Counted from the stretch's first letter, positions 6,233-38,453 are shown. The stretch is 45,720 bases of DNA from Dehalococcoidia bacterium (GCA_041497735.1 JBGQHA010000001.1:1-45720), one strand, 5' to 3'. Numbers and translations: made by a program. The notes: generated by a model from the sequence alone, not told the origin.

Positions 6233-6245
6233 CGCGCGAACGCTT

Positions 6246-7625: not shown

Positions 7626-7718
7626 GTTCCGGTCGATCTCTGCGTCATTCTACGCGACCGAGAAAGCTGCCACCAAGCCCCTTCGAGCGGCGGGCCGCGT
7701 GTGGTGAGCCTGACGTCC

Positions 7719-8996
7719 CTAGCGCCTATTCGCTGGAGTCAGCTCGATGACGTCGTTCGTTGGCGCAGTGTTCGGCTGCGAACGGGCTGGCCTGCGGTTG
7801 AAGACGTAGTTGAACCCATCGTTTGGTTGAAAGTCGGTTGTAAACGCTGCGCGTGAGACACCTTGCGCTCGCTGCCGCTTGTACTGGTCCCAGATGAGCG
7901 TGATGGGACAGTCGTAGCAGATGAGTGACTTTGCGAGCGGCGATGCGCCGGCGTGCGACCGGAAGAGCGTTCGCGCCTCGCGAAACTTGTCGTTGTTCCA
8001 AAGCTGGCGGAAGCTCGAAGCTGACAGCTCAGCGAGGGGGATAGCATGATCATTGCCGAACACGCCAAAATCGTCTTCCTTATAGTACGCGGCGCAGCAC
8101 GGCGCCGTGCCCCCATCGCTGTTGACGACCGCCTGCTGCCAGAGAAAGTGGCAGTAGCCGGGGTTGGGCTTTTGTTCGGGGTCGATAAACTCCTTGTTGA
8201 TATCCCAGTCAGGGCCGGCAACCCAGCCCTTCGACAGGGCAAACTCCATGTCGAGCTCCGCCGCCATTTGGCGGGCGGACTCGATCTCTTCCTTCGTCTT
8301 GTTGTGCGAGAAGATGTGGTACTCCCAGATCATATGCGGATACTTCGAGCCCAGCTTCTGCTTCGCGGCGTTTACCAGCTGAACGTTGCGCAATATCGTC
8401 CCGAGATCGCCGCGGACTCTGTACTGCTCATAGCTCTCCTGCGATGCGCCATCGAGCGATACGCCAAGCACCTGCAGACGTGCGGCCACGAGTTGTTCCG
8501 CGCGTTCTTCGTCGAACGGGAAGCTAAAATTCGTGCTGATGATGGTAGAGATGCCGCGGTCACTCGCGAGGCCTACCATGTCGTAGATGTTCTTATTGAG
8601 CAGTGGTTCACCCCAGTTGTAGAACTCGACGAGAAACAGCCTGTCGCCCAACTCGTCCAGAACCTTCTTGTACAGGGGCAATTGGAGCATCGTCTTGTCG
8701 CGGCCGATCTCGCCCGCTCCCGTGAAGCAATACGGGCAACGCAAATTACAAGCGTTGGTAGACTCTATCGTCAAGACAAGTGGCGAGCCGTAGAGCTTCA
8801 CGTGTCCGCGGCTTTTCTGGAAGCGGACCAAGTAGAGGTTGAGCAGGCGTGTTGGGGTCAGGCGGACACCTGGGTAATTGGGAACGCGCAGGAACGACAG
8901 CAGTTGGCGGTACGCATCTCGTCCCCAAGACACGGGTCTACGGACGAGTCGCCAAAGCTTTCCGAGCACAGCTGGTGCTAGGGAGCGTTTTTTCAT
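7719..8996 (-). CDS. Radical SAM enzyme with a SPASM/twitch-type C-terminal Cys cluster
   Basis: CNLRCPYC (CxxxCxxC) at about residue 83. C-terminal Cys-rich region CHFLWQQAVVNSDGGTAPCCAAYY ... LICYDCP. The gene is markedly lower in G+C than its neighbours (60/120 G+C at 8521-8640). Confidence 0.85.
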   Translation of the reverse strand: MKKRSLAPAVLGKLWRLVRRPVSWGRDAYRQLLSFLRVPNYPGVRLTPTRLLNLYLVRFQKSRGHVKLYGSPLVLTIESTNACNLRCPYCFTGAGEIGRDKTMLQLPLYKKVLDELGDRLFLVEFYNWGEPLLNKNIYDMVGLASDRGISTIISTNFSFPFDEERAEQLVAARLQVLGVSLDGASQESYEQYRVRGDLGTILRNVQLVNAAKQKLGSKYPHMIWEYHIFSHNKTKEEIESARQMAAELDMEFALSKGWVAGPDWDINKEFIDPEQKPNPGYCHFLWQQAVVNSDGGTAPCCAAYYKEDDFGVFGNDHAIPLAELSASSFRQLWNNDKFREARTLFRSHAGASPLAKSLICYDCPITLIWDQYKRQRAQGVSRAAFTTDFQPNDGFNYVFNRRPARSQPNTAPTNDVIELTPANRR

Positions 8997-9043
8997 GTGG
9001 CCTTAATCCTGGCGGGAGCGGGGGCCCGTCGATGCGGTGGCAA

Positions 9044-9073
9044 ACTTTAGCAAAGGCTGCGGTAACCTGTCAA
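9044..9073 (-). promoter_or_regulatory. Possible sigma-70-type promoter for the radical SAM operon (TTGACA-N18-TAAAGT)
   Basis: On the minus strand, a perfect TTGACA at 9073-9068 and TAAAGT at 9049-9044, about 45 nt upstream of the ATG at 8996. Confidence 0.3.
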
Positions 9074-9075
9074 CA

Positions 9076-9084
9076 TGCTATACT
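9076..9084 (+). promoter_or_regulatory. Extended -10 promoter element TGCTATACT facing the acyltransferase operon
   Basis: TGn + TATACT in the 233-nt divergent intergenic region, 146 nt upstream of the 9230 start. The same 9-mer occurs at 43407-43399. Confidence 0.4.
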
Positions 9085-9229
9085 TGCGTACCACGCAACT
9101 ATTCGAACTCAGCCGTTCCGCGGTTGTTACAGCGACGACGTGTCTCCGTTAGTGATGATGAAGGGCAGTTCATCGTTCGGCAGGGAGTCTGCGCGGCTGA
9201 GCGGCATGGTCTCCGAGATCTCTTCCTAA

Positions 9230-10507
9230 ATGGCGGCGCTGGCGGTATCCGCCGAATCGAGCGGCCGGCCGGGCGAGGCCAGCAACGCCCGCCACTTGCC
9301 GGTACTCGACGGTCTACGTGGTCTCGCGATCCTGCTCGTCATGCAGCACCACTTCTGGGGTTTGGCGTTTGGTCTGGGCGGCCGGGCTCCGACGCTCGCG
9401 ATTGACCTCCATATGCGCGCGCTCTTCGCCGTCGGCTGGTCGGGCGTCGACCTCTTCTTCGTGCTCTCAGGTTTTCTCATCACGGGTATCCTTTGCGATG
9501 CGAAACGATCCAACTTCTATTTCCGCAACTTCTATGCCCGCCGGCTGCTCCGCATCTTTCCGCTCTATTATGCGTTCCTAGTGTTCGCGCTGTTCTTGTT
9601 GCCGAACTTCCATAGACTGGTGGGACCCGACCAGGTGAGCCAGTTGCGCGCGAGCCAGTTCTGGTACTGGACGTATACGATGAACATCGGGTCAGCGGTG
9701 AAGCAGTTCCACACCCAAGTGCCGATCGTGCATAGCCAGTTTTGGTCGCTTGCAGTCGAAGAGCAGTTTTATCTGGTCTGGCCGCTCCTTATCCTCCTTC
9801 TCAGCCGCCGAACGATGACGGTGGTGTGCGGGGTCCTCGTCGGCGCCGCGCTCGCTGTTCGCTTCGTCCTTGTGGATCCGATAAGCGCGTCATTCGCCAA
9901 CCTGAACGCGGCGCACGTCTTGCTGCCGGCCCGCATTGACACGCTTGCGCTTGGGGCGCTGATTGCGCTCATGGTGCGCGGGGGAAGCGACCTCATCCCA
10001 TTCCGTCGATATGCGTTTCCCGTTGCTGCTGGGTCGCTGTTGGTGCTCACGGTTCTCTTCGTTAGGCACCATGGGTTATCCGTGCTCGATCGGGACGTCG
10101 CGACCATCGGGTTTTCCGCGTTGGCGCTGTTCTTCGCCGCGTTACTGCTGCTCGTTGTGTCATCTGTGCCGGGCTCGGCGCTCCATCGCGTCTTTACGTC
10201 GTCTGGCCTGAGGATGCTGGGCCGTTATTCGTACGCGATCTACGTCTGCCACCTGCTGCTGGCGTTTGAGCTCGCCGCCGAGTTCGTTCGCCACGATGTT
10301 TCACGCACGGTCTTCGGTTCGCAGATACCGCTGAACATCGTGTTCAGTCTGGTCTGCACGGCCGGGTCCATCGCAGTCGCCTGGCTGAGCTGGCACTTCT
10401 TCGAGAAGCAGGTCCTGAAGCTGAAGCGATACGTGCCGTACGGGCGCCCGCGCCCAGCCGTTGAACGGCCGGCGGTGGCGGAGCGGCCGATGCTGGCGGC
10501 GCCATGA
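9230..10507 (+). CDS. Acyltransferase family 3 (OafA/YrhL-type membrane O-acyltransferase), paralogue 1
   Basis: LPVLDGLRGLAILLVMQHHF, GVDLFFVLSGFLITGIL, RRLLRIFPLYY, WSLAVEEQFYLVWP. About 10 TM segments. The start is uncertain. Confidence 0.85.
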   Translation: MAALAVSAESSGRPGEASNARHLPVLDGLRGLAILLVMQHHFWGLAFGLGGRAPTLAIDLHMRALFAVGWSGVDLFFVLSGFLITGILCDAKRSNFYFRNFYARRLLRIFPLYYAFLVFALFLLPNFHRLVGPDQVSQLRASQFWYWTYTMNIGSAVKQFHTQVPIVHSQFWSLAVEEQFYLVWPLLILLLSRRTMTVVCGVLVGAALAVRFVLVDPISASFANLNAAHVLLPARIDTLALGALIALMVRGGSDLIPFRRYAFPVAAGSLLVLTVLFVRHHGLSVLDRDVATIGFSALALFFAALLLLVVSSVPGSALHRVFTSSGLRMLGRYSYAIYVCHLLLAFELAAEFVRHDVSRTVFGSQIPLNIVFSLVCTAGSIAVAWLSWHFFEKQVLKLKRYVPYGRPRPAVERPAVAERPMLAAP

Positions 10508-10586
10508 CTTCGGGCTCCTGAGGCCGTCTCGTAGCATCAGGGTAGAAGCCGCGTTATGTTAGTGACGCCCCGCTGGAGCGCAGACC

Positions 10587-11816
10587 TTGGGCCAACAGGC
10601 GAACGAAGCGCTATCTGAACCCCGGCGCATCCCTGCGCTCGATGGGGTGCGCGGCATCGCCATTCTCCTGGTACTGACGTACCACTTTTCGTGGGCGCTC
10701 GGATTCGGAACGCAGTTCCCGGACCGCGCCCTCGGCCGGGTTCTGAGTGTCGGCTGGGCAGGGGTCGACCTGTTCTTCGTCCTCTCGGGGTTCCTCATCA
10801 CCGGCATCTTGCTCAACGCGCGTGAAGGCAGCGGCTACTTCCGCACCTTCTATGCGCGCCGGGTGCTTCGCATATTCCCGCTCTACTACGGCTTCTTGTT
10901 CATGATGATCGTGGTGCTTCCGGAGCTGCCGTTCCTGCGCGACAACCACGGGCTTCAGACCTTACGGCATCACCAGTTGATCTACTGGACGTACTTGTAC
11001 AACGTAGCGATCTCCCTTCATCCGGGCGTTGACCTTGGCCCCTACGCGAACGGGCATTTGTGGTCGCTGGCGATCGAAGAGCAGTTCTATCTGATCTGGC
11101 CGTTCGTGGTCCTCGTGCTCGGGCGGCGGGCCCTCGCCTCGTTTTGTGTTCTCTCCATCGTCGCGGCGCCGGTTATCCGGTATGGGTTGCTGCACGGCGC
11201 CGTTCCGGATCTCCAGAACGTCTTCGCCGCTTCAACCCTGATGCCGGCGCGCATGGATACGCTTGCCCTCGGCGCCCTGATCGCGGTGATCTACAGAGAT
11301 CCTGATCTCGTACGCAAGGCGGCTCGCTGGGCGCTTCCGGTTGGCGTGGTGGCGATCTCGGCGCTCGTGATCTTGGATCTCAACCGGCATGGGCTTTCGT
11401 TGCTGGATGAGAGAGTCCTTATGTATGGCCTCAGCGGTGTGACGCTAACCTTCGGTGCGGTTGTCATGCTGGTGGTCGGCGGCGTGCCTGGCACGCTCCA
11501 GTCGGTCATGGCAAATCGCGTGTTGACGTTCTTCGGCAGGTACAGCTACGGTCTCTACGTCCTTCACTTCCAGATCATGGAGGAGCTGAAGAAACAAGCG
11601 GCGAACCATGACTGGGTCCGTTCTGTCGGGGGATCGTTCATTCCGTTCGACTTGGCGTTTACGGCAGTGGCGTTGACCCTCTCCGTCTCAGCCGCGTGGC
11701 TGAGCTGGCAGCTCTTCGAGAAGCAGGTCCTGAAACTCAAGCGGTACGTACCGTACGGACGGAGGGCCGCGATCGAGCCAATTGGCCGCCGCCAGCCGAC
11801 GCTACCAGCGCGATGA
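10587..11816 (+). CDS. Acyltransferase family 3, paralogue 2
   Basis: TTG start per the track. IPALDGVRGIAILLVLTYHF, GVDLFFVLSGFLITGIL, WSLAIEEQFYLIWP. The C-terminal WLSWQLFEKQVLKLKRYVPYG is nearly identical to paralogue 1. Confidence 0.85.
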   Translation: MGQQANEALSEPRRIPALDGVRGIAILLVLTYHFSWALGFGTQFPDRALGRVLSVGWAGVDLFFVLSGFLITGILLNAREGSGYFRTFYARRVLRIFPLYYGFLFMMIVVLPELPFLRDNHGLQTLRHHQLIYWTYLYNVAISLHPGVDLGPYANGHLWSLAIEEQFYLIWPFVVLVLGRRALASFCVLSIVAAPVIRYGLLHGAVPDLQNVFAASTLMPARMDTLALGALIAVIYRDPDLVRKAARWALPVGVVAISALVILDLNRHGLSLLDERVLMYGLSGVTLTFGAVVMLVVGGVPGTLQSVMANRVLTFFGRYSYGLYVLHFQIMEELKKQAANHDWVRSVGGSFIPFDLAFTAVALTLSVSAAWLSWQLFEKQVLKLKRYVPYGRRAAIEPIGRRQPTLPAR

Positions 11817-15709: not shown

Positions 15710-16489
15710 ATGACGATGAATCTGCGCTCGCAGGCGATCCTGAAAGCCTTGCAGCACGTTTCCACCGCCTTCCCAGAAGAGCCCCTCCATGTTGTTGAGG
15801 TGGGCTCGATGTACAACGAACACGAAGGTCTGTCGACCTACTTGATTGCGGATGTGCTCGCCAAGAGGGCCGGAAAGAGCCGCTTCATCAGCATCGACTG
15901 GGACCCGGAGCACATCGAGGCGTGCAGGGCGATCATGCGCAAGCGCAACGCCGCGCTCGTAGAGGCTGTCGAGTTCCGCGAGGGCCACAGCCTGCGCTTT
16001 CTACCGCCAGTGCTGGCCGAGTTGGGGACGGTGCACTTCGCGCTACTAGACGGCGGCGAGCATCCCGAAGTCTGCCTGGCGGAGTTCGAGCTGGTGACGA
16101 AGCACTTGGCGCCGGAGGGCGCGCTGCTGATCGATGACGCGCAACCGATCCCCCGCAAGCAAGACTATGCGCTCCAGCGTCCGCTCGGGAAAGTAAACCT
16201 GATCCTGCCAATGCTGCTGATCGAGGAGTATTTGCGACATCGCGGCGAGATTCGCGCCGCCGGCTCGGATACGAACGACTCCACGACTGTGCCGGACGCG
16301 CACTTCTTGAGCGAGCTGAAGGGCCTCGATCTCAACAACCGAGGTGCCGCGTTCTGCGTCATGGGCACCTGGCATCGCATGCTCGCCTATGGCAGCCCGA
16401 AGTTCGTCGAAGGCGCAGCCGAGCTGACCGACGTCGGGCTGATGCGCCGGGCGGCGCGCGGCGTGCTCGAGAAGCTGCGGCTCGGCTAG
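15710..16489 (+). CDS. Class I SAM-dependent methyltransferase (Methyltransf_24 / O-methyltransferase-like)
   Basis: VVEVGSMYNEHEGLSTYLIA ... FISIDWDPEHIEACRAIM ... LLDGGEHPEVCLAEFELVTKHLAPEGALLIDD. Its stop shares a CTAG with the convergent flippase gene. Confidence 0.65.
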   Translation: MTMNLRSQAILKALQHVSTAFPEEPLHVVEVGSMYNEHEGLSTYLIADVLAKRAGKSRFISIDWDPEHIEACRAIMRKRNAALVEAVEFREGHSLRFLPPVLAELGTVHFALLDGGEHPEVCLAEFELVTKHLAPEGALLIDDAQPIPRKQDYALQRPLGKVNLILPMLLIEEYLRHRGEIRAAGSDTNDSTTVPDAHFLSELKGLDLNNRGAAFCVMGTWHRMLAYGSPKFVEGAAELTDVGLMRRAARGVLEKLRLG

Positions 16490-17958
16490 GCGAGACCCGC
16501 GCCCTCAGCTTCCGCTGGCCGCGTGATCTGCGGCAAGCTGAGGCCATCGAAATACTTGAGCGGCCACGCGATGATCGCGAGACTGCCGACGGCGATGATC
16601 GCGGCTGCCGCGAAGACCAGCGGGTGTTCCGGGCCCAGGGTGGCAACGCTGAGTGCGGCATAGGGAAGCGCGAAGAGCCACAGCCGGGTCTCTTTCACAA
16701 GATCCGTGTCGAGCACCTGCCAACGCACAATGGCGACCTGCGCGACGAGCAGGAACGCCTCGGTGATCACCGTCTCGATCGACGCGCCGCGCGCCTTCAG
16801 CGTTGGGATCAGGATGAAGCAGAGCGTCAGGTTGAGCGCCGCCGTCGCGGCCTGAACGCGCACCCGCGTGCCGATCTTGTCGTTCGTGGCCAGCACGGCG
16901 GACGCCGAGCCGGAGAGATAGCGCAGCGGCAACGCCAGTGCCAGGATGCGCAGCAGCAGCGCGGACTCCTGGAACGAACCGCCGAAGATCCTGGGCACAA
17001 ACGGATCGGCGAGCAGCACGAGCGCCGTCGCCGCTAGCATGCCGATGAACAGAATGCCTTTCGACGTTAGCACGTAGGTGCGTTGCAGCCGCTCTCGATC
17101 GACCTGGCTCCACTCGAAGTAGCGTGGGTAGAGCACGCGGTTGAAGACCACGATCGGCAGGAGATACGCGACGACCAGCATGCGCACCGGGATGTTGTAC
17201 AAGCCCACCTGCCGCGCTCCCACAAGCAACGACAGCATCACGAGGTCGATGCTGAGGTAGATGAAGTAGAAGAAGTCACCCATGCCGAAGAGAAAGCCGG
17301 TGCGGAACAACGACCGGATCCGTGCAGGGCTGATCCGTAAGGAGAAATCGTCGCGGAGTAGCCAGGCGGTGAAGATCGACATCGCCGTGCTGGCGATGAG
17401 CGGCGACAGTGCCAGCATTGTGAGCCCGAGGTCGGCCAGTACGACGGCGAGGGCGTAGATCACGTTCGCGACGGCCGCGACAACGCCGGCGATCGCGATC
17501 GCGGTGTAGCGGCCCCGCACCTGAAGCGCCGCAGAGAGCTGCGCGTTGAGTGCCATGGGGAAGAGCGCCGTGCCCATCACCAACACGACGCCGCGCACCG
17601 TGTGGCTGTAGTCGAACAGGTACGCCCAACCCGCGAGCCCTGCGTACGCGACAAGCGCCGTACCTAGTGCGCCGACGATGCTGTTGCTCAACAACACCGG
17701 CAGCTCCTCTTCTCCGCGCGCGCCGAGCTGAAGAATGGCGTACAACAGCCCAAAGCCGGCGAATGTCGCGGCGAAGGCTTGGAGCGCCTGGCCGGTGGCG
17801 AAGATGCCGTACCCCTCCGAGCCGAGGTAGCGCGCAGCGGCGATGGCGATTAGCGGCAGCATCGCGGCGCGCGCGAGCTCGGCGATCAGGTTCGCGCCAA
17901 TGCCGGCGAGCAACCGATGTTCCTTCGCGTGCCTGGCCAACGTCTCTATGCGGAACAT
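16486..17958 (-). CDS. MOP-superfamily polysaccharide/oligosaccharide flippase (Wzx-like)
   Basis: 490 aa with about 14 TM helices. N-terminus LAGIGANLIAELARAAMLPLIAIAAARYLGSEGYGIFA is typical of polysaccharide biosynthesis (Polysacc_synt) proteins. Last gene of the 10-gene operon. Confidence 0.75.
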   Translation of the reverse strand: MFRIETLARHAKEHRLLAGIGANLIAELARAAMLPLIAIAAARYLGSEGYGIFATGQALQAFAATFAGFGLLYAILQLGARGEEELPVLLSNSIVGALGTALVAYAGLAGWAYLFDYSHTVRGVVLVMGTALFPMALNAQLSAALQVRGRYTAIAIAGVVAAVANVIYALAVVLADLGLTMLALSPLIASTAMSIFTAWLLRDDFSLRISPARIRSLFRTGFLFGMGDFFYFIYLSIDLVMLSLLVGARQVGLYNIPVRMLVVAYLLPIVVFNRVLYPRYFEWSQVDRERLQRTYVLTSKGILFIGMLAATALVLLADPFVPRIFGGSFQESALLLRILALALPLRYLSGSASAVLATNDKIGTRVRVQAATAALNLTLCFILIPTLKARGASIETVITEAFLLVAQVAIVRWQVLDTDLVKETRLWLFALPYAALSVATLGPEHPLVFAAAAIIAVGSLAIIAWPLKYFDGLSLPQITRPAEAEGAGLA

Positions 17959-29997: not shown

Positions 29998-30013
29998 CGA
30001 ATCGCGAACTGAA

Positions 30014-30045
30014 CCCCGCCGTCCGCGGCGGGGTGTGTCTTTTGT
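30014..30045 (+). terminator. Intrinsic-terminator-like hairpin and U tract inside the 5' leader of the dehydrogenase operon (possible attenuator)
   Basis: CCCCGCCG-TCCG-CGGCGGGG (30014-30033) followed by TGTGTCTTTTGT. A second GACGGCGGGG (30048-30057) can pair with the same 5' arm. Confidence 0.45.
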
Positions 30046-30087
30046 AAGACGGCGGGGACCCGACTCGTTAGGTTGCTGAGGGAACAC

Positions 30088-31359
30088 GTGGGGACGCTTA
30101 CCGTCTCAGCGGATAGTGTTTCGTTCCGCATCCGAAGCCGCGAGGCAACGGTCGCGGTGGTGGGACTTGGCGTCGTCGGCTTGGCCCAGGCCGGCGTCCT
30201 GATGCGCGCTGGTTTTCGCGTCCTGGGCATCGATGTCAGCTCTGAGTGTGTGGCAGCGCTCTCGAACGGCGCGCGGCCGGCCGACATCGACGACTTCTGG
30301 AAGCTCAGTGATCGCTTCGAAAGCCTCAGTGAGGCCGACTGCGTCATCATCGCCGCTCCGACGAGCTACCAGCCGGACGGTACCCCCGACGTGAGCGCCG
30401 TGGCGGAGGCCGCGCGCGACATCGGCCGGAACCTGCACCCGGGCATGCTCGTCGTGCTCGAGAGCACCGTCCCGCCCGGTACCACGCGCGAGGTAGTCCT
30501 GCCGGCGCTCGAGGCGTCCGGCCTGCGCGCGGGACGCGACTTCTTCCTCGCCTTCTCGCCGGAGCGTATCGACCCGGGCAGCACAGCCCACCCGGTGGAA
30601 TCGATCCCGAAGCTCGTCGGCGGCATCACGCCACAGTGCGCCGCCGTTGCGTCCGAGCTGTACCGCTTCGTTGCGCCGCAGGTGCACACCGTCTCCAGTC
30701 CGGAGATCGCCGAGCTGGCGAAGGTCTTCGAGAACACGTTCCGGTTCGTCAACATCAGCCTCGCCAACGAGCTGGCGCTCATGTGCGGCGCGATGGGCCT
30801 CGATGTGCAAGAGGTGATCGACGCGGCGAGCACGAAGCCGTTCGCGTTCATGGCGCACCGGCCCGGCCCGGGCGTGGGTGGCCGCTGCATCCCGATGGCG
30901 CCGCATTACCTGTCGTGGGCCGCGGAGCGCGCCGGCGCGGAGCTGCCGGTCACGGCTGCGGCGATCGAGCTGAACGATGCGCTCCCGCGCCGCGTGGCGC
31001 AGCGCGCGCTGGCGCTCTTGGGCGACAAGACCTCGCCCGCCGTGCTGCTGCTCGGCGTCGCGTACAAGCCGAATATCGATGACACGCGCGGCTCCGTCGC
31101 GCTCGCGGTCGCAGCGGAGCTGCTGAGTTCCGGCGCACGGGTGCTCTATCACGACCCGCACGTGCCGTCTCTGACAATCGATGGGGAGACACTGCAATCG
31201 CAGCCGCTCGACGCGCGCCTGCTCGAGCGCGTGGACGCGGCGATCCTGCTCTGTCCCCACACGGCGATCGATCTCGATCTCGTCGCCCGCCATACGCGCG
31301 TCATCCTCGATCCTACAGGCCGCCTCCGCCCGGACGCAGAGCGCGTCTTCGGCGTGTAG
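30088..31359 (+). CDS. Nucleotide-sugar dehydrogenase (UDP-glucose/GDP-mannose dehydrogenase family, WecC/TviB-like)
   Basis: VAVVGLGVVGLAQAG (GxGxxG); catalytic-Cys region GPGVGGRCIPMAPHYL; C-terminal LLLGVAYKPNIDDTRGS. GTG 30088 behind GAGGGA is chosen; the track start is a TTG at 30073. The start is uncertain. Confidence 0.9.
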   Translation: MGTLTVSADSVSFRIRSREATVAVVGLGVVGLAQAGVLMRAGFRVLGIDVSSECVAALSNGARPADIDDFWKLSDRFESLSEADCVIIAAPTSYQPDGTPDVSAVAEAARDIGRNLHPGMLVVLESTVPPGTTREVVLPALEASGLRAGRDFFLAFSPERIDPGSTAHPVESIPKLVGGITPQCAAVASELYRFVAPQVHTVSSPEIAELAKVFENTFRFVNISLANELALMCGAMGLDVQEVIDAASTKPFAFMAHRPGPGVGGRCIPMAPHYLSWAAERAGAELPVTAAAIELNDALPRRVAQRALALLGDKTSPAVLLLGVAYKPNIDDTRGSVALAVAAELLSSGARVLYHDPHVPSLTIDGETLQSQPLDARLLERVDAAILLCPHTAIDLDLVARHTRVILDPTGRLRPDAERVFGV

Positions 31360-31371
31360 GCAGGCCCTCAC

Positions 31372-32391
31372 ATGCCTCCCGGCCCTCGCGACCTGCGCAC
31401 GGCGAAGCCGAAGATCGTCGTTATCGGCGGCGGCACCGGATCTCACATCATCCTCACCGGCCTCAAGCGGCACGACGTTGATATCACCGCGGTGGTCGCG
31501 ATGACCGATCGGGGCGGCAGCTCCGGCCGCTTGCGCGACGAGTTCGGGCACCTGCCGCCGGGCGACATCCGCCAGTGCCTAGCAGCCCTGGCGCCCGAAG
31601 AGCACGCGACGTTGCTGCTGCGACAGCTCTTCGGCTACCGCTTCGCCAAAGGCTCCGGCTTGAACGGCCACAGCTTCGGCAACTTGTTCATCACCGCACT
31701 TGTCGAGATCACGGGCAGCATCGACCGCGCAATCGAGGAGGCGGGCAACATCCTCGGCATCCGCGGCCGTGTGCTGCCGGTCACGCTCTCGAAGACCGAC
31801 CTCTGCGCGCGCCTCACCGACGGCACCGTGATCGTGGGCGAGGACCGGCTCGATGTGCGGCGCGAGAAAGTGGACGTGCCGATCGATTACGTGTACCTCG
31901 ATCCGCATGCGTACGTGAACCCGGCTGCGGCGCAGGCGATCCGCGAGGCAGACGTCGTCGTCCTCGGCCCGGGCGATCTCTATACGAGCATCATCGCCAA
32001 CCTGGCTGTCGATGGCGTGCCGGAGGCCGTCCGCTCGTCGAAGGGACGCAAAGTCTTCGCCTGTAACTTGGCGACCAAGCGCGGTGAGTCGGACGGCTTT
32101 GCGGCGTCGGACTTCGTGCGCGTCGTGCGGGAGTATCTGGGCGCAGAGGACGCGCTCGATACGGTGCTGATCAACTCGACGCCGGTGCCGCCACGCGTGC
32201 GGCAGCGCTATGAGTCCGAAGGTTCCTTCGTCGTCGAGGCGGACATCGAGGAGTGCCGCCGGCTCGTCCCGCACGTCGTCAGCCTGCCGCTCGCCAGCGC
32301 GGGAACGTACCTCCGCCACGACCCGGAGCGGCTGGCGCAGGCGGTCCTGGCTGTCGCTGAGGGCAAGTTAGCGGCCGCGGCGAACCAGTAG
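31372..32391 (+). CDS. YvcK / CofD-like (UPF0052, 2-phospho-L-lactate transferase superfamily) protein
   Basis: KIVVIGGGTGSHIILTGLKRHDVDITAVVAMTDRGGSSGRLRDEFGHLPPGDIRQCLAALA matches the family signature. 12-nt gap after the dehydrogenase gene. Confidence 0.85.
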   Translation: MPPGPRDLRTAKPKIVVIGGGTGSHIILTGLKRHDVDITAVVAMTDRGGSSGRLRDEFGHLPPGDIRQCLAALAPEEHATLLLRQLFGYRFAKGSGLNGHSFGNLFITALVEITGSIDRAIEEAGNILGIRGRVLPVTLSKTDLCARLTDGTVIVGEDRLDVRREKVDVPIDYVYLDPHAYVNPAAAQAIREADVVVLGPGDLYTSIIANLAVDGVPEAVRSSKGRKVFACNLATKRGESDGFAASDFVRVVREYLGAEDALDTVLINSTPVPPRVRQRYESEGSFVVEADIEECRRLVPHVVSLPLASAGTYLRHDPERLAQAVLAVAEGKLAAAANQ

Positions 32392-32474
32392 CACCCGTTG
32401 CCGGGTGGGGCTTCCGGCCGCTACCGTTCATCCGAGCGGCCGCTCGCGTTAGATCTCTGGGGAGCCGAATCGAG

Positions 32475-34592
32475 ATGCTGGAGAGCCTTCGAAAGCAAGC
32501 GCGCGCCCACCCGGGCGACCTGACGGCCGGAGCCGCGCTGGACAGCGCCCTGATGCTCCGGCTGGCGCGCGGCGCGCTCGGCGGGGCGGCGGTGCTGGCC
32601 CTGGAGCTCTTGGCGCTCGAGGCGCGCGTCTTCTCCGGACTCCCCGGGTACCCGGCGGCCATCCTTGTCTTCCTGAGCATGATCATCGTTCCGGGGCTGC
32701 TCCTCCACGACGCATTGCTGCCGCGTTCGCGCGCGGACATCATCGAGCGGCTGGCGATCGCGTTCCCGCTCGGCCTTGCGATCGCTGCGCCGTCGGGGCT
32801 GCTCGCGCTCTGGCTCGGCACGAGTCTCGGGGCGTGCATCCGGCTGCACATTGCGATCGCAGCAGTGGTCGCGGCGGGCTCGGCGTTCGTTGCGCCACCG
32901 GCGGCCGCCGTCTGGTTGACGCGCACCGTTCGCGGCTGGAACGCATCGACGGTGGTATTGCTGCTGCTGTTCGCCGTCGCGGCGGGCGGCGTTCTGACGT
33001 CGCCGTACTGGGGCGGGGATCGCCTCGCGCGAAACTTCGACGATTGGCGCTACATGACGTACGTCAACAGCTACTTGCACAGCGGCCACATTAGTCCGCT
33101 CCACCCGGTTGGCCTTGGCGAGGCAGCCTACCCGAGGATGGAGATCAACGCCTGGGTCGTTTTCCAGGCCGCCATCGCGCGCACCGCTGGCATCAGCGCC
33201 GAAAGCGTCGTGCTGAATGACCTCACGCCGATCTTAGTCGTGTTCGCGCTTATGGCGACGTACACGCTGGCGAAGGGACTGTTCCGCAGCCGTTCGGTGG
33301 CGCTGCTTGCGGTGCTGATCCAGCTCGGCTACGCGCTGATCGACATGTCGCACGACGAAGGGCTCGGCGCCAGCTTCCTCTTTCGCATGAGCGAGGACAA
33401 GATGGTCGGGACGTACATCCTGTTCCCGATCGGACTGCTCCTTGTCGCGCAGTTCTTCCGGCGCGCCCAGCCGAGCACGCTGGCCTGCTTCGCGCTCGTC
33501 TGCCTCGCGCTCTTCGTCGTGCATCCGCAGCCGCTGCTGTTCCTCGGCGTAACGCTGCTGGCCCTGGCGCTCTTCCGGTCGGCGTCGAAGCGCTCCTGGC
33601 AGCCGCTGCTCTGGTCGGCGGCGCTCGGCCTGCCGCTCGCCGCGTTCACGTTCGGCCAGTTCATCGTCTGGCACGCGTTCAACACCTCGTGGCCGGCGCT
33701 GTTCGACACGACGCTCACCTGGCGCGAGGCATTTAAGATCGTCCATCTGCCCGGCAAGATGATCATGGGCAACTTCCACCTCATCCTGCACCCGCTGATG
33801 ATCGGCTCGCTCGTGCTCGCGCCGCTGATCTGGTGGCGCGCGCGGCGGCTGCCGGCGCATCAGGCCATGCTCGCCGCGATGCTCGGCTGGCTGCCGTGGT
33901 TTTTCGTGCCGCCGCTCTCCACCGTCGCCGCGAAGCTGGCGTCCGCCGAGCTGACCGCGCGTCTGCCGTACATGGCGCCGGCCGCGATCGTCTGGGCGTA
34001 CGCGTTGCACCGTGTCCTGCGGCGTTCGCGCCGCTGGCGAGGCGCTCTGTCAGTACCGCGGGTTCTCGCGCCCGCAGCCGCGGCTGCTGTGCTCCTCGCA
34101 GGCGCGCTGCTCGTGCAGGAGCTGTACTTTCCGGCCGACCACGGCGCGTACTACACGTGGGCGAGCACGGACACGATCGTGAAGGGCACGGAGCATTCGA
34201 TCTTCCTCGGAGGGAAGGACCGGCTGCTCTCGCGCGAGTGGCGGATCAAGCCGGACGAGCGCGAGATGATCGAGTACCTGCGCACGCACGCGCCGGAAGG
34301 CGCGGTCGTGCTCGCGCCCGACGACGTAAGCCTGCACCTACCGGGCGTATTGTGGCAGGTGCGGCCGTTGTACTCACAGGCGATCATCGGGCAGTGGCAG
34401 CGGCCGCCGGTGATGGCCTTGTACCAGGGACAGCTCAGCGGTGATGCGCTGGCGAGCGCGCTGAGCCAGTCGCATGTGCGATATGCCATCGCGGCCTACT
34501 CGAGCTATGCAGACGCGGCGCTGAGCCAGCTGCCGTCGGCGAAGCTCGCTACGGAGATCGGGCCATACGAGGTCTACGGCATTGGCCAGTGA
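32475..34592 (+). CDS. Large polytopic membrane protein with a C-terminal soluble domain; possible GT-C-type enzyme (function unassigned)
   Basis: 705 aa with at least 12 hydrophobic helices, then an approximately 170-aa non-hydrophobic C-terminus. GGGGAG about 10 nt upstream of the ATG. Sits immediately upstream of a polyprenyl-P-sugar-synthase-type GT2. I recognise no family motif. Confidence 0.45.
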   Translation: MLESLRKQARAHPGDLTAGAALDSALMLRLARGALGGAAVLALELLALEARVFSGLPGYPAAILVFLSMIIVPGLLLHDALLPRSRADIIERLAIAFPLGLAIAAPSGLLALWLGTSLGACIRLHIAIAAVVAAGSAFVAPPAAAVWLTRTVRGWNASTVVLLLLFAVAAGGVLTSPYWGGDRLARNFDDWRYMTYVNSYLHSGHISPLHPVGLGEAAYPRMEINAWVVFQAAIARTAGISAESVVLNDLTPILVVFALMATYTLAKGLFRSRSVALLAVLIQLGYALIDMSHDEGLGASFLFRMSEDKMVGTYILFPIGLLLVAQFFRRAQPSTLACFALVCLALFVVHPQPLLFLGVTLLALALFRSASKRSWQPLLWSAALGLPLAAFTFGQFIVWHAFNTSWPALFDTTLTWREAFKIVHLPGKMIMGNFHLILHPLMIGSLVLAPLIWWRARRLPAHQAMLAAMLGWLPWFFVPPLSTVAAKLASAELTARLPYMAPAAIVWAYALHRVLRRSRRWRGALSVPRVLAPAAAAAVLLAGALLVQELYFPADHGAYYTWASTDTIVKGTEHSIFLGGKDRLLSREWRIKPDEREMIEYLRTHAPEGAVVLAPDDVSLHLPGVLWQVRPLYSQAIIGQWQRPPVMALYQGQLSGDALASALSQSHVRYAIAAYSSYADAALSQLPSAKLATEIGPYEVYGIGQ

Positions 34593-34610
34593 TCCTATCA
34601 TGAGCGATCG

Positions 34611-35777
34611 ATGACGACGGCGGCAGCAGACGAACGGCGAACTGCGCGTGAGACGCAATGCGACGTCTCGGTCGTGCTGGCGTGCCTGAACGAGGTCGCG
34701 ACGGTCGCGGCGTGCGTGTCGAAGGCGCAGCGCTGGTTCCGCGATGCGGGCCTGCGCGGCGAGGTGATCGTCGTCGACAACGGTTCGACCGACGGGTCGC
34801 GCGAGGAAGCGGAGCGCGCGGGGGCTATCGTGGTCGACGAGCGGCTGCAGGGCTACGGCGCGGCACACCGTCGTGGCTTCGCGGAGGCGCGTGGCGAGTT
34901 CATCGTCATGGCGGACGCGGACGACACCTATGACCTGCTTCACCTCGATCCGCTGATCGAGCCGCTCCGCAACGGTTCCGACATGACGGTGGGCAATCGA
35001 TTGCAGAACCTGGCGCCGGGATCGATGACGTGGAGCCACCGCGTCATCGGCACGCCGGCGATCACGATGCTCCTCGGGCTGTTCGCGGGCGCGCGGGTTG
35101 GCGATAGCCAGTGTGGCCTACGCGCGTTCACCCGCGCGGCGTACGAAAAGATGGAGCTGCGCTCGGACGGCATGGAGCTGGCGTCCGAGATGATCCTCAA
35201 GGCCTCGAGGCGCGGGCTGCGCATCGCCGAGGTGCCGGTGCCCTACGCCGCGCGCCAGGGCGAAAGCAAGCTCAACACCTTCCGAGACGGCTGGCGCCAC
35301 CTGCGCTTCCTGCTGCTCAACACGCCTCTCTATCTCTTTCTCGTGCCGGGGCTCGTGCTCGTGCTGCTGGGCGCGCTGGCGCTCGGCGTCACGCTCGCTT
35401 CGCAGAGCGGCGTGCACATCGGCACGCTGAGGTGGCAGCCCGTGTTCGCGGGCGGCATCCTCCTGATCATCGGCGCGAACGCGATGATGATCGGCGTTTC
35501 GACGCACTTGTACGCGGCGAAGCGCAAGATCATCTCGGAAGACAGCCTAACCATCCTGTTCAACCGCCTCGTCACGCTGGAGCGCATGCTCGTGCTGGCG
35601 GCGTTGCTGATCCTGATCGGCGTCGGCCTGGACGGTGTGATCTTCTTCGAGTGGCTGGCGAAGCATCACTCCGGCCGCACCGAAGGCCTCGCGGCGACGG
35701 CGCAGACCGCCATCATTATCGGCGCGAACATGGCGCTGGGCGGCTTCCTGACCGCGCTGCTGATGGACGAACGCTAG
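34611..35777 (+). CDS. GT2 family polyprenyl-phosphate sugar synthase type with four C-terminal TM helices
   Basis: VSVVLACLNEVATVAACV ... VIVVDNGSTDGS ... IVMADADDTYD ... GDSQCGLRAF. The C-terminal region has LYLFLVPGLVLVLLGALALGV and three further helices. Confidence 0.8.
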   Translation: MTTAAADERRTARETQCDVSVVLACLNEVATVAACVSKAQRWFRDAGLRGEVIVVDNGSTDGSREEAERAGAIVVDERLQGYGAAHRRGFAEARGEFIVMADADDTYDLLHLDPLIEPLRNGSDMTVGNRLQNLAPGSMTWSHRVIGTPAITMLLGLFAGARVGDSQCGLRAFTRAAYEKMELRSDGMELASEMILKASRRGLRIAEVPVPYAARQGESKLNTFRDGWRHLRFLLLNTPLYLFLVPGLVLVLLGALALGVTLASQSGVHIGTLRWQPVFAGGILLIIGANAMMIGVSTHLYAAKRKIISEDSLTILFNRLVTLERMLVLAALLILIGVGLDGVIFFEWLAKHHSGRTEGLAATAQTAIIIGANMALGGFLTALLMDER

Positions 35778-35888
35778 ATGCCCGACGCACCGCTCGCGAG
35801 CGTGATCATCCTCGGCTACTGGGGCCGCGCGTTCGTCGATGGCTGCCTCTCCTCGGTGCTCGACCAGGAGCAAGGAGACGTCTTGTGA
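35778..35888 (+). pseudogene. 36-codon remnant of a GT2 glycosyltransferase N-terminus
   Basis: Hand translation: MPDAPLASVIILGYWGRAFVDGCLSSVLDQEQGDVL*. This is the first beta-alpha unit of a WbbL-like GT2 (compare VYIVVVNWNGWQHTVRCLKSLQ at 14765). It starts at TAGATG and ends in GTGA, which overlaps the next start. Confidence 0.5.
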
Positions 35889-36763
35889 TCTCCGTCGTCA
35901 TCCCAACCAAGAACGAAGCTGAGCGCATAGGACCCTGCCTGGAGGCGATTGCTCGCCAGCAACTGGATGATCACGACGTTCAGGTCATAGTGATCGATTC
36001 CGGATCGGAAGACGACACGGTGCAAATCGCCGAGGCGCACAGCGCGACCGTGCATCGCATTACTGCCGAGGAGTTCGGGCACGGCCGCACGCGCAATCTT
36101 GGCGCATGCCTCTCGAATGGTGAGGCGATCGTATTCTTGAATGCGGACGCCGAGCCGGCCGGTGAGCGCTGGCTGTCCGCGCTGATCACGCCGTTGAACA
36201 AGGATAAGGTCGTAGCCACTTATTCACGCCAGGTCGCCCGTCCCGACGCCAACCCTTGGGAGGCCAGCCTGCTTGGTCATCTCTATCCGGCCACGCCAGC
36301 CACCTGGTCGCTGGCGCACGCGCCTAAGGGCCTTCGCGTGGTCTTCAGCACCGTCGCGGGCGCCGTCACCCGACAGGCCTGGGAGCAGCACCCCTTTGAC
36401 CACACGATCGACATCGCCGAGGACCAGCAATGGGCAGAGGAGACACTGCGCTCTGGGTACTCAATCTGCTATACACCGGACTCGGTGGTTGTCCACTCGC
36501 ACAACTACGGTTTGCGCGACAGCTGGATCCGTTACCGTCGGCTGGGGCGCGTCCGGGCTACACGAGTCTCCACCGTGGCTGGCCCCGGACTCGGGCTCTC
36601 CTCCTCTCTGGCCTTAGCGCGTTTAGCTGCCAGCGATGTCCTTGGCGAGCTGCGCCGCGGCCATGTAATGAGCTCTCTCCACGCCGGCGCCGCCAACGGG
36701 TCACGCATACTTGGCTACACAGCAGGCATAGCCGAAGGGCGCCTTCGCGTCCGAAAGAAGTGA
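35885..36763 (+). CDS. GT2 family glycosyltransferase
   Basis: GTG at 35885 with AGGAG 7 nt upstream; the track ORF from 35111 is a shadow extension over the previous gene. ISVVIPTKNEAERIGPCLEAIARQ ... VIVIDSGSEDDT ... VFLNADAEP. Confidence 0.8.
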   Translation: MISVVIPTKNEAERIGPCLEAIARQQLDDHDVQVIVIDSGSEDDTVQIAEAHSATVHRITAEEFGHGRTRNLGACLSNGEAIVFLNADAEPAGERWLSALITPLNKDKVVATYSRQVARPDANPWEASLLGHLYPATPATWSLAHAPKGLRVVFSTVAGAVTRQAWEQHPFDHTIDIAEDQQWAEETLRSGYSICYTPDSVVVHSHNYGLRDSWIRYRRLGRVRATRVSTVAGPGLGLSSSLALARLAASDVLGELRRGHVMSSLHAGAANGSRILGYTAGIAEGRLRVRKK

Positions 36764-36837
36764 GCGGATAAGACAGGTGAGGCGCCGGTGCCTGCGCGGC
36801 TGTGGACGCGCAGCGCGGCGACGAGGTGAGGGCGGAC

Positions 36838-37818
36838 ATGGCTGAGTGGTCGTTCCTCGTTCCGCCCGGCATCAGCGTCACGCTGCGCGCCTCGAAGCGG
36901 CCGGCGCTGCTCGCCCGCTGCCTCGGCAACGAGGTCGCGCCGCACGTTGTACCCTCCCTCCTCTTGGAGTTGGGGACTGGCGAGCAGACGGATCAGGACG
37001 CGCAAGGCCGTTACAAGGGCGTCCCGTGGCGCTGCGGCGTGACGGCGCGACCCGATGGCCGGCTCGCGCTCTCCTGGCGCAGCCCGCTCCTGCGCGAGTA
37101 TCTCGCGCTGCACATCGCGCTGCTGCCGGCGCTCCGGCGCTTGCTCCTCCAGCGGGACGTCGCGCTGATCACGGGCGCGGCGTTCGCATCCGGCGGCGAT
37201 GCCACGGTGCTGGCCGGCGAGACCGGCTCGGGCAAGACGGCGCTGCTGCTGGCGGCGCTCGGGTCCGGCGCGCGTCTCGTAGGCGATGAGTACATCGGCG
37301 TTTCGGCGACAGGTGTTGTGACGCCCGTGCTGCGCGTCATCGCTTTACGGAGCGCGGCGCTCGGCGCTGTCCCTCAGCTCGGGCAACGTTTGTCTGCGCG
37401 CCGGCGGCTCGAGTTGCGGACAGCGACGACGGCAAGGCTGTTGACCGGCAGGCGTCTCGACCCGCTGGTACACGTTTCGCCGGATGAGCTCGGCATCGAG
37501 GGCGGTGCAACCGGCAGTGCGCTGTCACGGGTCGTCTGGCTCGAACGCGGCGATCGATCGGAACAGCGCAACGAAACCAGGCGCGTAGAGGACGTGATCG
37601 AGGCCCTCGCGCGCGCCGCTGCGCGGCACGACGACGTCTATAGCGTGCCCGCCGCGTTGCGAAGCGACGAGTCTGCCGCCGCGCGCTGGCGCGACGTGCT
37701 CGCGTCTGGCCTGCGCAATGTGCGCTGCCAGCGGCTCGCGCTTCCCGCCGGCCCGCTGCCGGCCGACATGCTGCGCCAGCTCATCGACGCTGAGCCCGTC
37801 GCGGAGCACACAGCGTGA
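36838..37818 (+). CDS. HprK-related P-loop kinase-like protein (HPr kinase C-terminal domain fold)
   Basis: LITGAAFASGGDATVLAGETGSGKTALLLAALGSGARLVGDEYIGV matches the HprK C-domain pattern (GxSGxGKS/T ... G..L..D). ATG 36838 behind GAGGG is chosen; the track start is a GTG at 36802. Confidence 0.65.
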   Translation: MAEWSFLVPPGISVTLRASKRPALLARCLGNEVAPHVVPSLLLELGTGEQTDQDAQGRYKGVPWRCGVTARPDGRLALSWRSPLLREYLALHIALLPALRRLLLQRDVALITGAAFASGGDATVLAGETGSGKTALLLAALGSGARLVGDEYIGVSATGVVTPVLRVIALRSAALGAVPQLGQRLSARRRLELRTATTARLLTGRRLDPLVHVSPDELGIEGGATGSALSRVVWLERGDRSEQRNETRRVEDVIEALARAAARHDDVYSVPAALRSDESAAARWRDVLASGLRNVRCQRLALPAGPLPADMLRQLIDAEPVAEHTA

Positions 37819-38453
37819 CCGAGACCTACGGCGCGAAGCGGCACTACCAGCGCCAGGAGATCGCTGCAGCGTATGATGACGCGCGGTTTCGCGGTCTGCG
37901 CGGCCGGTTCGTGAACCTACTCGAGCGGCGGCTCCTGATGCGCGCGATCGCCGGTCTGCCACACGGTGCGCTTGTGCTCGACCTGCCGACCGGCACGGGA
38001 CGGATGGCGCGCTGGCTCACGGAGGCCGGCTACCGCGTTGTCGGCACGGACATCTCGCTCCCCATGCTCGGTCGGGCGCGCGCGCTCTCGACCCAAGCGG
38101 CGCTCGTGCGCGGCGAAGGAGAGCGGCTGCCGTTCGCGGACAAGAGCGTCGATGCCGCTGTCTGCTTCCGGCTGCTGTCGCACCTGCCACGCGAGGCGCG
38201 CATTGCCGTGCTGCGCGAGATGGCCCGTGTCGCGCGAGAACGTGTCGTGGCCGTCTACCAACCGCATCGCGTGGCGGTCTGGTGGCTCGTGTACGGCCTG
38301 CTGCTGCGAAAGCCGGTGCCGCGCTACTACGTCTCCGCGGCAGATCTCGAGCAGGAGTTTGCGGAGAGCGGACTGCGTCCGGTTCGGAGCCACGCGCTGC
38401 TGCGAGGCCTGTTTATGGAGCGGGCGTACGTGCTGGCGCCCTCGCGTCGCTAG
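37815..38453 (+). CDS. Class I SAM-dependent methyltransferase (Methyltransf_11)
   Basis: The GTG overlaps the kinase stop (GTGA at 37815-37818). VLDLPTGTGRMARWL ... GTDISLPMLGRAR ... SVDAAVCFRLLSHL. Confidence 0.85.
   Translation: MTETYGAKRHYQRQEIAAAYDDARFRGLRGRFVNLLERRLLMRAIAGLPHGALVLDLPTGTGRMARWLTEAGYRVVGTDISLPMLGRARALSTQAALVRGEGERLPFADKSVDAAVCFRLLSHLPREARIAVLREMARVARERVVAVYQPHRVAVWWLVYGLLLRKPVPRYYVSAADLEQEFAESGLRPVRSHALLRGLFMERAYVLAPSRR

Follow-up and report, generated by a model that had tools for sequence, protein, structure and literature searches.

The role of the YvcK/GlmR proteins is debated; they have been regarded as activators of GlmS, as sensors of UDP-GlcNAc or as uridylyltransferases, and members of the CofD family transfer a phospho-group from a nucleotide-diphospho donor. 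GlmR binds UDP-GlcNAc and acts as a uridylyltransferase, reportedly making UDP-GlcNAc from GlcNAc-1-P and UTP, and mutation of the triad D40-D41-N198 (L. monocytogenes numbering) abolishes this activity (PMC10128056). WbdD, from E. coli O9a, adds first a phosphate and then a methyl group to the terminal mannose of a glycan, thus ending chain growth (PMC3482155). Here we analysed a stretch of 45,720 nucleotides from a Dehalococcoidia bacterium (GCA_041497735.1 JBGQHA010000001.1:1-45720), called the window in the following, which is a whole 45.7-kb contig. A plus-strand operon in it encodes a YvcK-type protein of the CofD family and, further downstream, a P-loop protein resembling HprK kinases. 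A first-pass annotation had taken the two as a partial signature of the GAK system, with which the locus shares genes for a CofD-fold protein and an HprK-fold kinase in one cluster, and had proposed that they act as a pair. We found that they are not a GAK-like functional pair and probably belong to separate sub-modules, and that the real partner of the kinase is the methyltransferase encoded directly downstream of it.

The genome to which the window belongs (G000) is fragmented, with 2.84 Mb in 480 contigs, a completeness of 82% and a G+C content of 64-69%. Comparisons were made in a set of 41 related genomes (close relatives) and, separately, in 301 evenly sampled genomes of the class Dehalococcoidia; the relatives with the same genes are metagenome-assembled genomes (MAGs) deposited as Dehalococcoidia or Chloroflexi. 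Thirteen independent loci carrying the kinase gene were examined, and 12 of them are informative for linkage to YvcK. Loci are designated by L numbers and the genomes compared by G numbers; C12 is contig 12 of the window's own genome (L003).

Pairing of the kinase with a methyltransferase

An orthologue of the methyltransferase is located immediately downstream of the kinase gene in all 13 loci, and the two genes show the identical pattern among the relatives: both are present, and adjacent each time, in eight of the 41 genomes, and 33 genomes have neither. In the window, the start of the methyltransferase gene overlaps the kinase stop by 4 nt (GTGA). Across the loci, the methyltransferase is better conserved (61-90% identity) than the kinase (41-80%). 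A comparison of the methyltransferase with PDB sequences returned generic class I methyltransferases only, and WbdD was not among the matches.

The window-type YvcK gene, an accessory copy as shown below, was found within 10 kb of the kinase gene in four of the 12 informative loci (the window, L004, L007/L017 and L014). These four loci share the full gene order of dehydrogenase, YvcK, GT-C, GT2_TM_C, GT2, kinase and methyltransferase. In the other eight (L005/L016, L010, L011/L018, L012, L019, L021, L022 and L023), the kinase gene occurs without a CofD copy, and the kinase-methyltransferase pair is found with LPG_synthase_TM, PMT_2, GT2_TM_C and GT2 genes; one of these loci belongs to G301, a genome of the same genus. 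Among the eight reference genomes that carry the kinase, the accessory YvcK is intact in three, decayed in one and absent from four. The first-pass annotation had stated beforehand that a failure of the two genes to co-occur in other genomes would speak against their pairing, and this is largely what was observed, the kinase being without CofD in 8/12 loci and 4/8 genomes. The shared function proposed for YvcK and kinase is therefore not upheld.

A flippase-like LPG_synthase_TM gene (PF03706) lies immediately upstream of the kinase-methyltransferase pair in the distant loci L005, L010 and L011; the window operon contains none.

The families of the GAK system are represented by NCBIfam models, and these were compared with the window proteins and with the whole genome. 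The GAK CofD-like model TIGR04357 gave 117 bits with the window YvcK, in two stretches and far below the cut-off of 340. A housekeeping YvcK encoded elsewhere in the same genome scores higher on this model (135 bits), and the signal is thus regarded as generic CofD-family similarity. TIGR04355 (HprK-related kinase B, cut-off 200) did not match the P-loop protein at E<=0.01, nor any other protein in the whole genome, and the GAK ATP-grasp model TIGR04356 had no match in this 82% complete genome. The XXXCH model TIGR04358 likewise had no match there, but the control search with it also matched no genome, which makes this negative uninformative. A literature search on the GAK system and on HprK-related kinases yielded nothing relevant. 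With TIGR04357 far below its cut-off and TIGR04355 and TIGR04356 unmatched, membership in the GAK system was rejected. This agrees with the first-pass view that the locus is not a canonical GAK system, and the same scores leave nothing of the 'partial GAK-like signature'. In contrast to the GAK system, both proteins fall short of the respective GAK models, no ATP-grasp enzyme was detected and the two genes are unlinked beyond one syntenic lineage. Since there is no GAK-like system at this locus, the GAK families gain no functional context here and a false lead is removed.

A rare kinase family with a predicted PEPCK/HprK fold

The ATG at 36838 is the start codon in all 31 homologous clusters of the P-loop protein. 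Classification by sequence alone was inconclusive. NCBIfam gave only weak matches, all to HprK-type models (28 bits for TIGR04352, HprK-related kinase A, with a cut-off of 200, and 17 bits for FomB), the sole Pfam match was a sub-threshold one to AAA_16 (19.8 bits), and PF07475, the C-terminal domain of HPr kinase, did not match the protein. A profile search of PDB sequences returned nothing significant: HprK chains had E values of 0.1-0.5, and ABC, PriA, RuvBL and HprK chains stood together at E ~0.1. An AlphaFold model of the protein (pLDDT 90.5, pTM 0.89) was decisive, since the Foldseek fold search discriminated where the sequence searches did not. Its first 34 matches are chains of the ATP-dependent phosphoenolpyruvate (PEP) carboxykinase (PEPCK), with E values from 3e-8 to 5e-5 and TMq of 0.56-0.63; HprK/P ranks next (E 6e-5 to 3e-4, TMt up to 0.58). 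We are confident that the protein, as modelled, adopts a PEP-carboxykinase-like fold with a P-loop nucleotide site, and judging from the profile scores it belongs to no curated HprK family. The first-pass description of an HprK-C-domain-like P-loop protein thus stands at the level of fold and superfamily, with the predicted model matching both PEPCK and HprK/P. A better fit to unrelated ATPases, which had been named as a possible objection, is not seen once the fold is considered.

Invariant in the 31 sequences are the Walker A residues G127, G130, G132 and K133 and, at a strand end, G149, D150 and E151; the spacing from the P-loop to this GDE matches that of GxSGxGKS...ADD in HprK/P. Compared with HprK/P and the HprK-related kinases (TIGR00679, TIGR04352, FomB NF000361) and with the PEPCK fold, the protein has in common the GxxGxGK[TS] motif, about 15 residues further on a strand ending in G-D-E (A-D-D in HprK), and a predicted fold like that of PEPCK and the C-terminal domain of HprK/P. 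It differs from the HprK families in scores that do not exceed 28 bits and are far under the cut-offs, in an N-terminal domain that is PEPCK-like and not MurE-like as in HprK, in the lack of an HPr context and in its methyltransferase partner.

The kinase family is rare. Among 5.8 billion proteins 31 clusters were found, none with a Pfam domain, and ~18 clusters were found at E<=1e-30 among 1.84 billion representatives. Only one of the 301 class genomes carries the kinase, and the eight close relatives that do all belong to one GTDB family. A wider halo comprises 233 full-length relatives at E<=1e-10. Ten remote relatives compared with NCBIfam showed weak matches within the HprK superfamily (HprK_rel_B, FomB, PEPCK, ScmC) and fell into no curated family.

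Remote relatives of the kinase were also seen in G105 and G209, genomes from two other families of the class (L025, G105:C33, 4345-6562; L026, G209:C55, 6654-7757). They score 31-84 bits with the family profile, match Hpr_kinase_C weakly and sit among GT2 and GT4 genes, two of them in tandem in G105. These relatives have no adjoining methyltransferase.

An accessory YvcK copy

The YvcK-type protein scores 307 bits with PF01933 (CofD) and 307 bits with the YvcK subfamily model TIGR01826 (cut-off 196), of which it covers positions 1-309 of 310, and it aligns end to end with YvcK of Bacillus halodurans (2HZB, 233 bits). The true CofD model TIGR01819 was matched in one short stretch only, with 29 bits compared to a cut-off of 257, and the protein is not a member of that family. 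The gene starts 12 nt after the dehydrogenase gene, and its first-pass assignment as a clear YvcK/CofD-family member is borne out by the TIGR01826 score.

With the described YvcK/GlmR/CuvA proteins (TIGR01826, PF01933; 2HZB, 2O2Z) the window protein shares the full-length match over the cut-off, the motifs GGGTG and GGSSGRLR...PPGD, two residues of the proposed uridylyltransferase triad (its first Asp and its Asn), and a nucleotide-sugar context. Unlike them, it is a second and patchily distributed copy, is encoded in a glycan operon beside a dehydrogenase and a GT-C gene in a genome without a match to yvcJ/rapZ or whiA, and has Arg in place of the second Asp of the triad. Its motif is TDRGGSSG where the canonical one is ADDGGSSG, and the Asn of 'ANL' is retained. 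Among the 120 best database homologues, DR is found in the 18 closest (at least 71% identity), DS in 96 (~60% identity) and DD in three only. Proteins with 53-62% identity to the window protein are the sole YvcK in ~28 genomes of other families among the 301 class genomes, and none of those genomes carries the kinase. For this reason the window gene is placed, on sequence comparison, in a separate YvcK lineage, which this genome has in addition to its other YvcK.

Among the 41 relatives, an intact window-type YvcK (~300-307 bits, ~340-aa frame) is restricted to three genomes (G000, G302 and G314). In the loci with an accessory-type YvcK, the gene upstream of it encodes the dehydrogenase in the window, L004, L007 and L014 and an epimerase/dehydratase in L013. 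Its most constant neighbour is the homologue of the 705-aa GT-C protein, which adjoins it downstream in five of the six such loci. The copy in L013 has 73% identity to the window protein and follows its NAD-dependent epimerase/dehydratase gene in another polysaccharide cluster, where the kinase gene is not found nearby, and in G314 the accessory YvcK stands beside the GT-C homologue and the kinase gene is on another contig. A decayed accessory-type YvcK, with in-frame stops, the motif TMTDNGGSSG and 67% identity to the window protein, was observed in G313 (L024, C63, 2064-2282); this genome keeps the kinase-methyltransferase pair on a contig other than that of the decayed gene.

A second YvcK is encoded in the window's own genome (C12:8845-10188, minus strand) and scores higher (TIGR01826, 370 bits; 2HZB, 287 bits). 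Such a housekeeping-type YvcK was found in 40 of the 41 relatives, with an open frame of ~450 aa (mostly ~430-470 aa, a few longer). Its motif is the canonical ADDGGSSG, and at the N-terminus it carries ~115 additional residues with two hydrophobic helices, an extension absent from the window copy. The two helices suggest that GlmR/YvcK might be membrane-anchored in this lineage. The housekeeping gene is flanked by genes for an alpha-galactosidase and an Opp-type binding protein. Genes for RapZ-like and WhiA proteins had no match in the 82% complete genome, and the yvcJ-glmR-whiA arrangement of Firmicutes is therefore not applicable. With a second, near-universal copy in existence, it was rejected that the window gene is the single housekeeping yvcK; nor is it a housekeeping single copy in a yvcJ(rapZ)-yvcK-whiA operon. 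The first-pass annotation had advised a check for a separate housekeeping gene next to whiA/rapZ; such a gene exists, and it is not located beside these two, neither of which was matched.

Two putative sub-modules and the alternatives

We consider it probable, with appreciable room for doubt, that the operon combines two sub-modules, one for the supply or gating of a nucleotide sugar and one in which the kinase and the methyltransferase decorate the glycan. The analysis directly determined the families and folds of the proteins, their paralogy, and the order and co-occurrence of the genes, whereas we infer the substrates, the reaction order and co-transcription. In sub-module A, the UDP-HexNAc-type dehydrogenase would make a nucleotide uronic sugar. 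The soluble accessory YvcK would bind the UDP-sugar pool and either top it up, by a GlmR-like uridylyltransferase activity, or gate the flow into this branch; the catalytic version of this role is less certain because of the Asp-to-Arg change. The GT2 with transmembrane helices (AglJ/GtrB-like) would load the sugar on polyprenyl phosphate, and the 705-aa GT-C enzyme would transfer it at the outer face of the membrane. In sub-module B, the P-loop kinase, predicted to be soluble and cytoplasmic, would phosphorylate the hydroxyl of a sugar, or else a phosphate, on an intermediate linked to a lipid or a nucleotide, and the translationally coupled methyltransferase, which depends on S-adenosylmethionine (SAM) and is also predicted to be soluble and cytoplasmic, would methylate that phosphate or a neighbouring group. 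The phosphorylated glycan substituent suggested in the first-pass annotation is thus still plausible by way of kinase and methyltransferase, but not by way of kinase and CofD-like protein.

Most likely, sub-module B is a functional analogue of the WbdD cap and not a member of that group. Common to both are a kinase and a SAM methyltransferase, tightly coupled, in a polysaccharide locus with a Wzm/Wzt-like ABC exporter. In contrast to WbdD, the window proteins are separate and not fused, the kinase has the predicted P-loop PEPCK/HprK fold and not a eukaryotic-like kinase fold, a coiled-coil ruler is missing and the host belongs to the Chloroflexi. A WbdD-type terminator, which combines a eukaryotic-like kinase, a methyltransferase and a coiled coil in one protein, was therefore rejected, and the likeness is one of function.

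The operon resembles the three-part Gtr/Agl glycosylation systems (a GT2 that makes polyprenyl-P-sugars, a flippase and a GT-C; Haloferax AglJ, AglM and AglP) in that an AglJ-like GT2, a GT-C protein, a dehydrogenase in the role of AglM and a methyltransferase in the role of AglP are found together. It differs from them since all similarities of the window proteins are below the equivalog cut-offs, the operon has no flippase gene (LPG_synthase_TM is found in distant loci), and YvcK and the P-loop kinase are added.

A bolder version, which we put forward as speculation only, specifies both sub-modules further. The kinase and the methyltransferase might form a two-protein system for a phospho-methyl (or phospho and O-methyl) cap or decoration of the glycan that is non-homologous to WbdD, and the DR/DS-type YvcK, in which the second catalytic Asp is lost, might be a UDP-sugar-specific gatekeeper or a phosphosugar transferase for polyprenyl-dependent GT-C glycosylation. 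If the pair indeed caps or decorates a glycan, this would be convergent evolution with WbdD, and an entire uncurated branch of HprK-like kinases in Chloroflexi glycan loci would thereby gain its first function. The novelty is modest, and all functions are deduced. New are a small unannotated kinase family of predicted PEPCK/HprK fold, which in the glycan loci of uncultured Dehalococcoidia shows a strict coupling to a methyltransferase, and a soluble accessory YvcK lineage tied to nucleotide-sugar enzymes and a GT-C transferase. A YvcK paralogue wired to a specific glycan pathway would also be a cleaner setting in which to test the role of this fold.

Several points weigh against the division into a sugar-supply and a decoration sub-module. 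All three reference genomes with an intact accessory YvcK (3/3) also have the kinase, and a functional link between the two within that one lineage is conceivable. The majority of the compared genomes are fragmented MAGs. The Arg in place of the second Asp (Ser in the wider subfamily) means that uridylyltransferase activity may be absent or altered. Furthermore, the target of the kinase could be a protein, a lipid or a small molecule and not a glycan, and the methyltransferase is a generic class I enzyme without specific similarity to the methyltransferase domain of WbdD.

It might also be, although we regard this as rather unlikely, that the window YvcK is a redundant or regulatory GlmR copy which is merely carried in the locus and, instead of acting on this glycan, serves central UDP-GlcNAc metabolism through the activation of GlmS. 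The score well over the YvcK cut-off, the 53-62% identity to the sole-copy YvcK proteins of other families of the class and the slow evolution of the gene (87% identity where the kinase has only 57%) would fit such a copy. A central function is harder to reconcile with a gene that in five of six loci directly follows one for a nucleotide-sugar enzyme and precedes the GT-C gene, is intact in 3/41 genomes only and decays with the locus, as in G313; in addition, the window copy has no counterpart of the N-terminal extension of the housekeeping YvcK.

Unlikely is also an activity of the P-loop protein outside glycan synthesis, as a regulatory ATPase, as a kinase of proteins or peptides in the manner of HprK/P and the lasso-peptide kinases, or, like FomB, as a kinase by which a phosphate ester receives a second phosphate. 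Protein and peptide kinases do occur in the HprK superfamily, the only sequence matches of the protein are HprK-related kinase A (28 bits) and FomB (17 bits), and the weak matches of its relatives to HprK_rel_B, FomB, PEPCK and ScmC point in the same direction. However, the neighbourhood always consists of glycan and lipid-carrier genes (GT2_TM_C, GT2, PMT_2, LPG_synthase_TM) together with the methyltransferase, genes for HPr, precursor peptides or phosphonates are not present in the neighbourhoods, and over its full length the protein gives a better superposition with PEPCK, a kinase of small molecules, than with HprK/P.

Very improbable is the first-pass idea of a reduced GAK-like pair, in which the kinase makes a phosphorylated donor or acceptor and the CofD-fold protein transfers the phospho-substituent onto a glycan or nucleotide-sugar, as CofD does with 2-phospholactate: both genes lie in one apparent transcription unit, the three genomes with an intact accessory YvcK have the kinase and phospho-group transfer is established for the CofD family, but the GAK models fail, the kinase is without CofD in most informative loci and in half of the kinase-positive genomes, L013 has the YvcK in another glycan cluster without the kinase, and the co-occurrence is limited to one syntenic lineage that inherited the whole seven-gene operon.

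The operon and the surrounding glycan locus

Both open reading frames (ORFs) flagged in the first-pass annotation were found at the coordinates given there (Table 1). Four genes including a relic ORF lie between the YvcK and the kinase gene, encoding the GT-C-fold protein, the GT2_TM_C protein, the 36-codon GT2 relic and a GT2. The intergenic gaps are 12, 83, 18, 0 and 74 nt, and there are two 4-nt overlaps (relic/GT2 and kinase/methyltransferase). A scan of 30100-38453 for terminator-like sites revealed none in intergenic regions. Because of the short gaps and overlaps and the lack of such sites, it is plausible from the sequence that 30073-38453 is a single transcription unit.

Table 1. Genes of the operon in the window, with positions counted from its first nucleotide.
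Feature	Position	Strand	Evidence
NDP-sugar dehydrogenase	30073-31359	+	TIGR03026 348 bits; three UDPG_MGDP_dh domains
Accessory soluble YvcK/GlmR-type CofD-family protein, 339 aa	31372-32391	+	TIGR01826, PF01933; motif VAMTDRGGSSG
705-aa polytopic membrane protein, predicted GT-C fold and C-terminal alpha/beta domain	32475-34592	+	Predicted model and Foldseek
GT2 with C-terminal transmembrane helices, polyprenyl-phosphate hexose synthase type (AglJ/GtrB-like)	34611-35777	+	PF00535, TIGR04182
36-codon relic of ancestral GT2	35778-35888	+	90% identity to L007 GT2 start
Replacement GT2 glycosyltransferase, GTG start 35885	35885-36763	+	PF00535 88.5 bits
P-loop kinase, predicted PEPCK/HprK fold, 326 aa	36838-37818	+	Predicted model, Foldseek, GETGSGKT...LVGDEY
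Class I SAM-dependent methyltransferase	37815-38453	+	Methyltransf_25 68 bits, Methyltransf_11 67 bits

Shortly before the start of the dehydrogenase gene, the 5' leader contains a strong terminator-like hairpin (30013-30034) with 9 base pairs, of which 8 are G-C, and a T-rich tail; it may act as an attenuator of the operon. In the syntenic relative L014 (ENA contig, 2554-10955), the dehydrogenase gene is broken into two ORFs, with shortened versions of the kinase (203 aa) and the methyltransferase (156 aa), reflecting either decay of the operon or assembly errors.

The best named models of the dehydrogenase are UDP-ManNAc dehydrogenase (198 and 186 bits) and TviB (156 bits), all below cut-off; its nearest named models are UDP-ManNAc and UDP-GlcNAc dehydrogenases, and we class it as a UDP-HexNAc-type enzyme. 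For the 705-aa protein, the predicted model (pLDDT 78, pTM 0.83) gave Foldseek matches to AftA (E 8e-8), to STT3/OST, AglB and PglB (1e-6 to 1e-3) and also to DPY19, with a probability of 1.0 and TM of 0.35-0.5, and the GT-C membrane fold was thereby recovered; Pfam gave a weak match to DUF6541. The GT2 with transmembrane helices scores 164 bits with the AglJ model TIGR04182 and 100 bits with a Dol-P-hexose transferase model, both below cut-off, and its orthologues contain PF26629 (GT2_TM_C).

The nearest relative of the window is L007 of G302, with ~93% DNA identity across the flanks. Compared with L007, the block at 35870-36786 has been replaced: DNA homology ends at 35869 and resumes at 36787 (blastn, tblastn). 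Over the first 31 codons of the L007 gene, which encodes a 339-aa GT2, the relic ORF shows 90% identity, and the new GT2 lies in a different frame and is ~29% identical to the L007 gene at the same position. The TGA of the relic overlaps the GTG start of the replacement gene. By this comparison the relic was left behind by a swap of the GT2 cassette. The translational coupling of GT2 and kinase found in the ancestral locus has been lost in the window, which has the 74-nt gap instead. In G301, the genome of the same genus, the kinase is only 44% identical and the locus is rearranged. The swap and this rearrangement are consistent with a fast-changing surface-glycan locus, and since the locus changes fast, linkage of YvcK and kinase inside one lineage is weak evidence of joint function.

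The operon most likely represents one branch of a ~40-kb variable surface-glycan locus of this uncultured Dehalococcoidia (Chloroflexota) bacterium. The glycan-operon setting, as already noted in the first-pass annotation, is confirmed by the neighbouring sugar-enzyme and glycosyltransferase genes, and the remaining contig also encodes glycan machinery: RmlD, GT4 and GT2 enzymes, acyltransferases, several methyltransferases and, elsewhere on the contig, several membrane transferases of the PMT_2/GT87 type. A Wzm/Wzt-like ABC-2 permease and an ABC ATPase are encoded at 3664-5635 in the same locus, directly followed by a methyltransferase gene (3664-6232 in all), and a Wzx-like flippase is encoded at 16486-17958 on the same contig. 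With an ABC exporter and a Wzx-like flippase on one contig, the glycan region may have two export routes.

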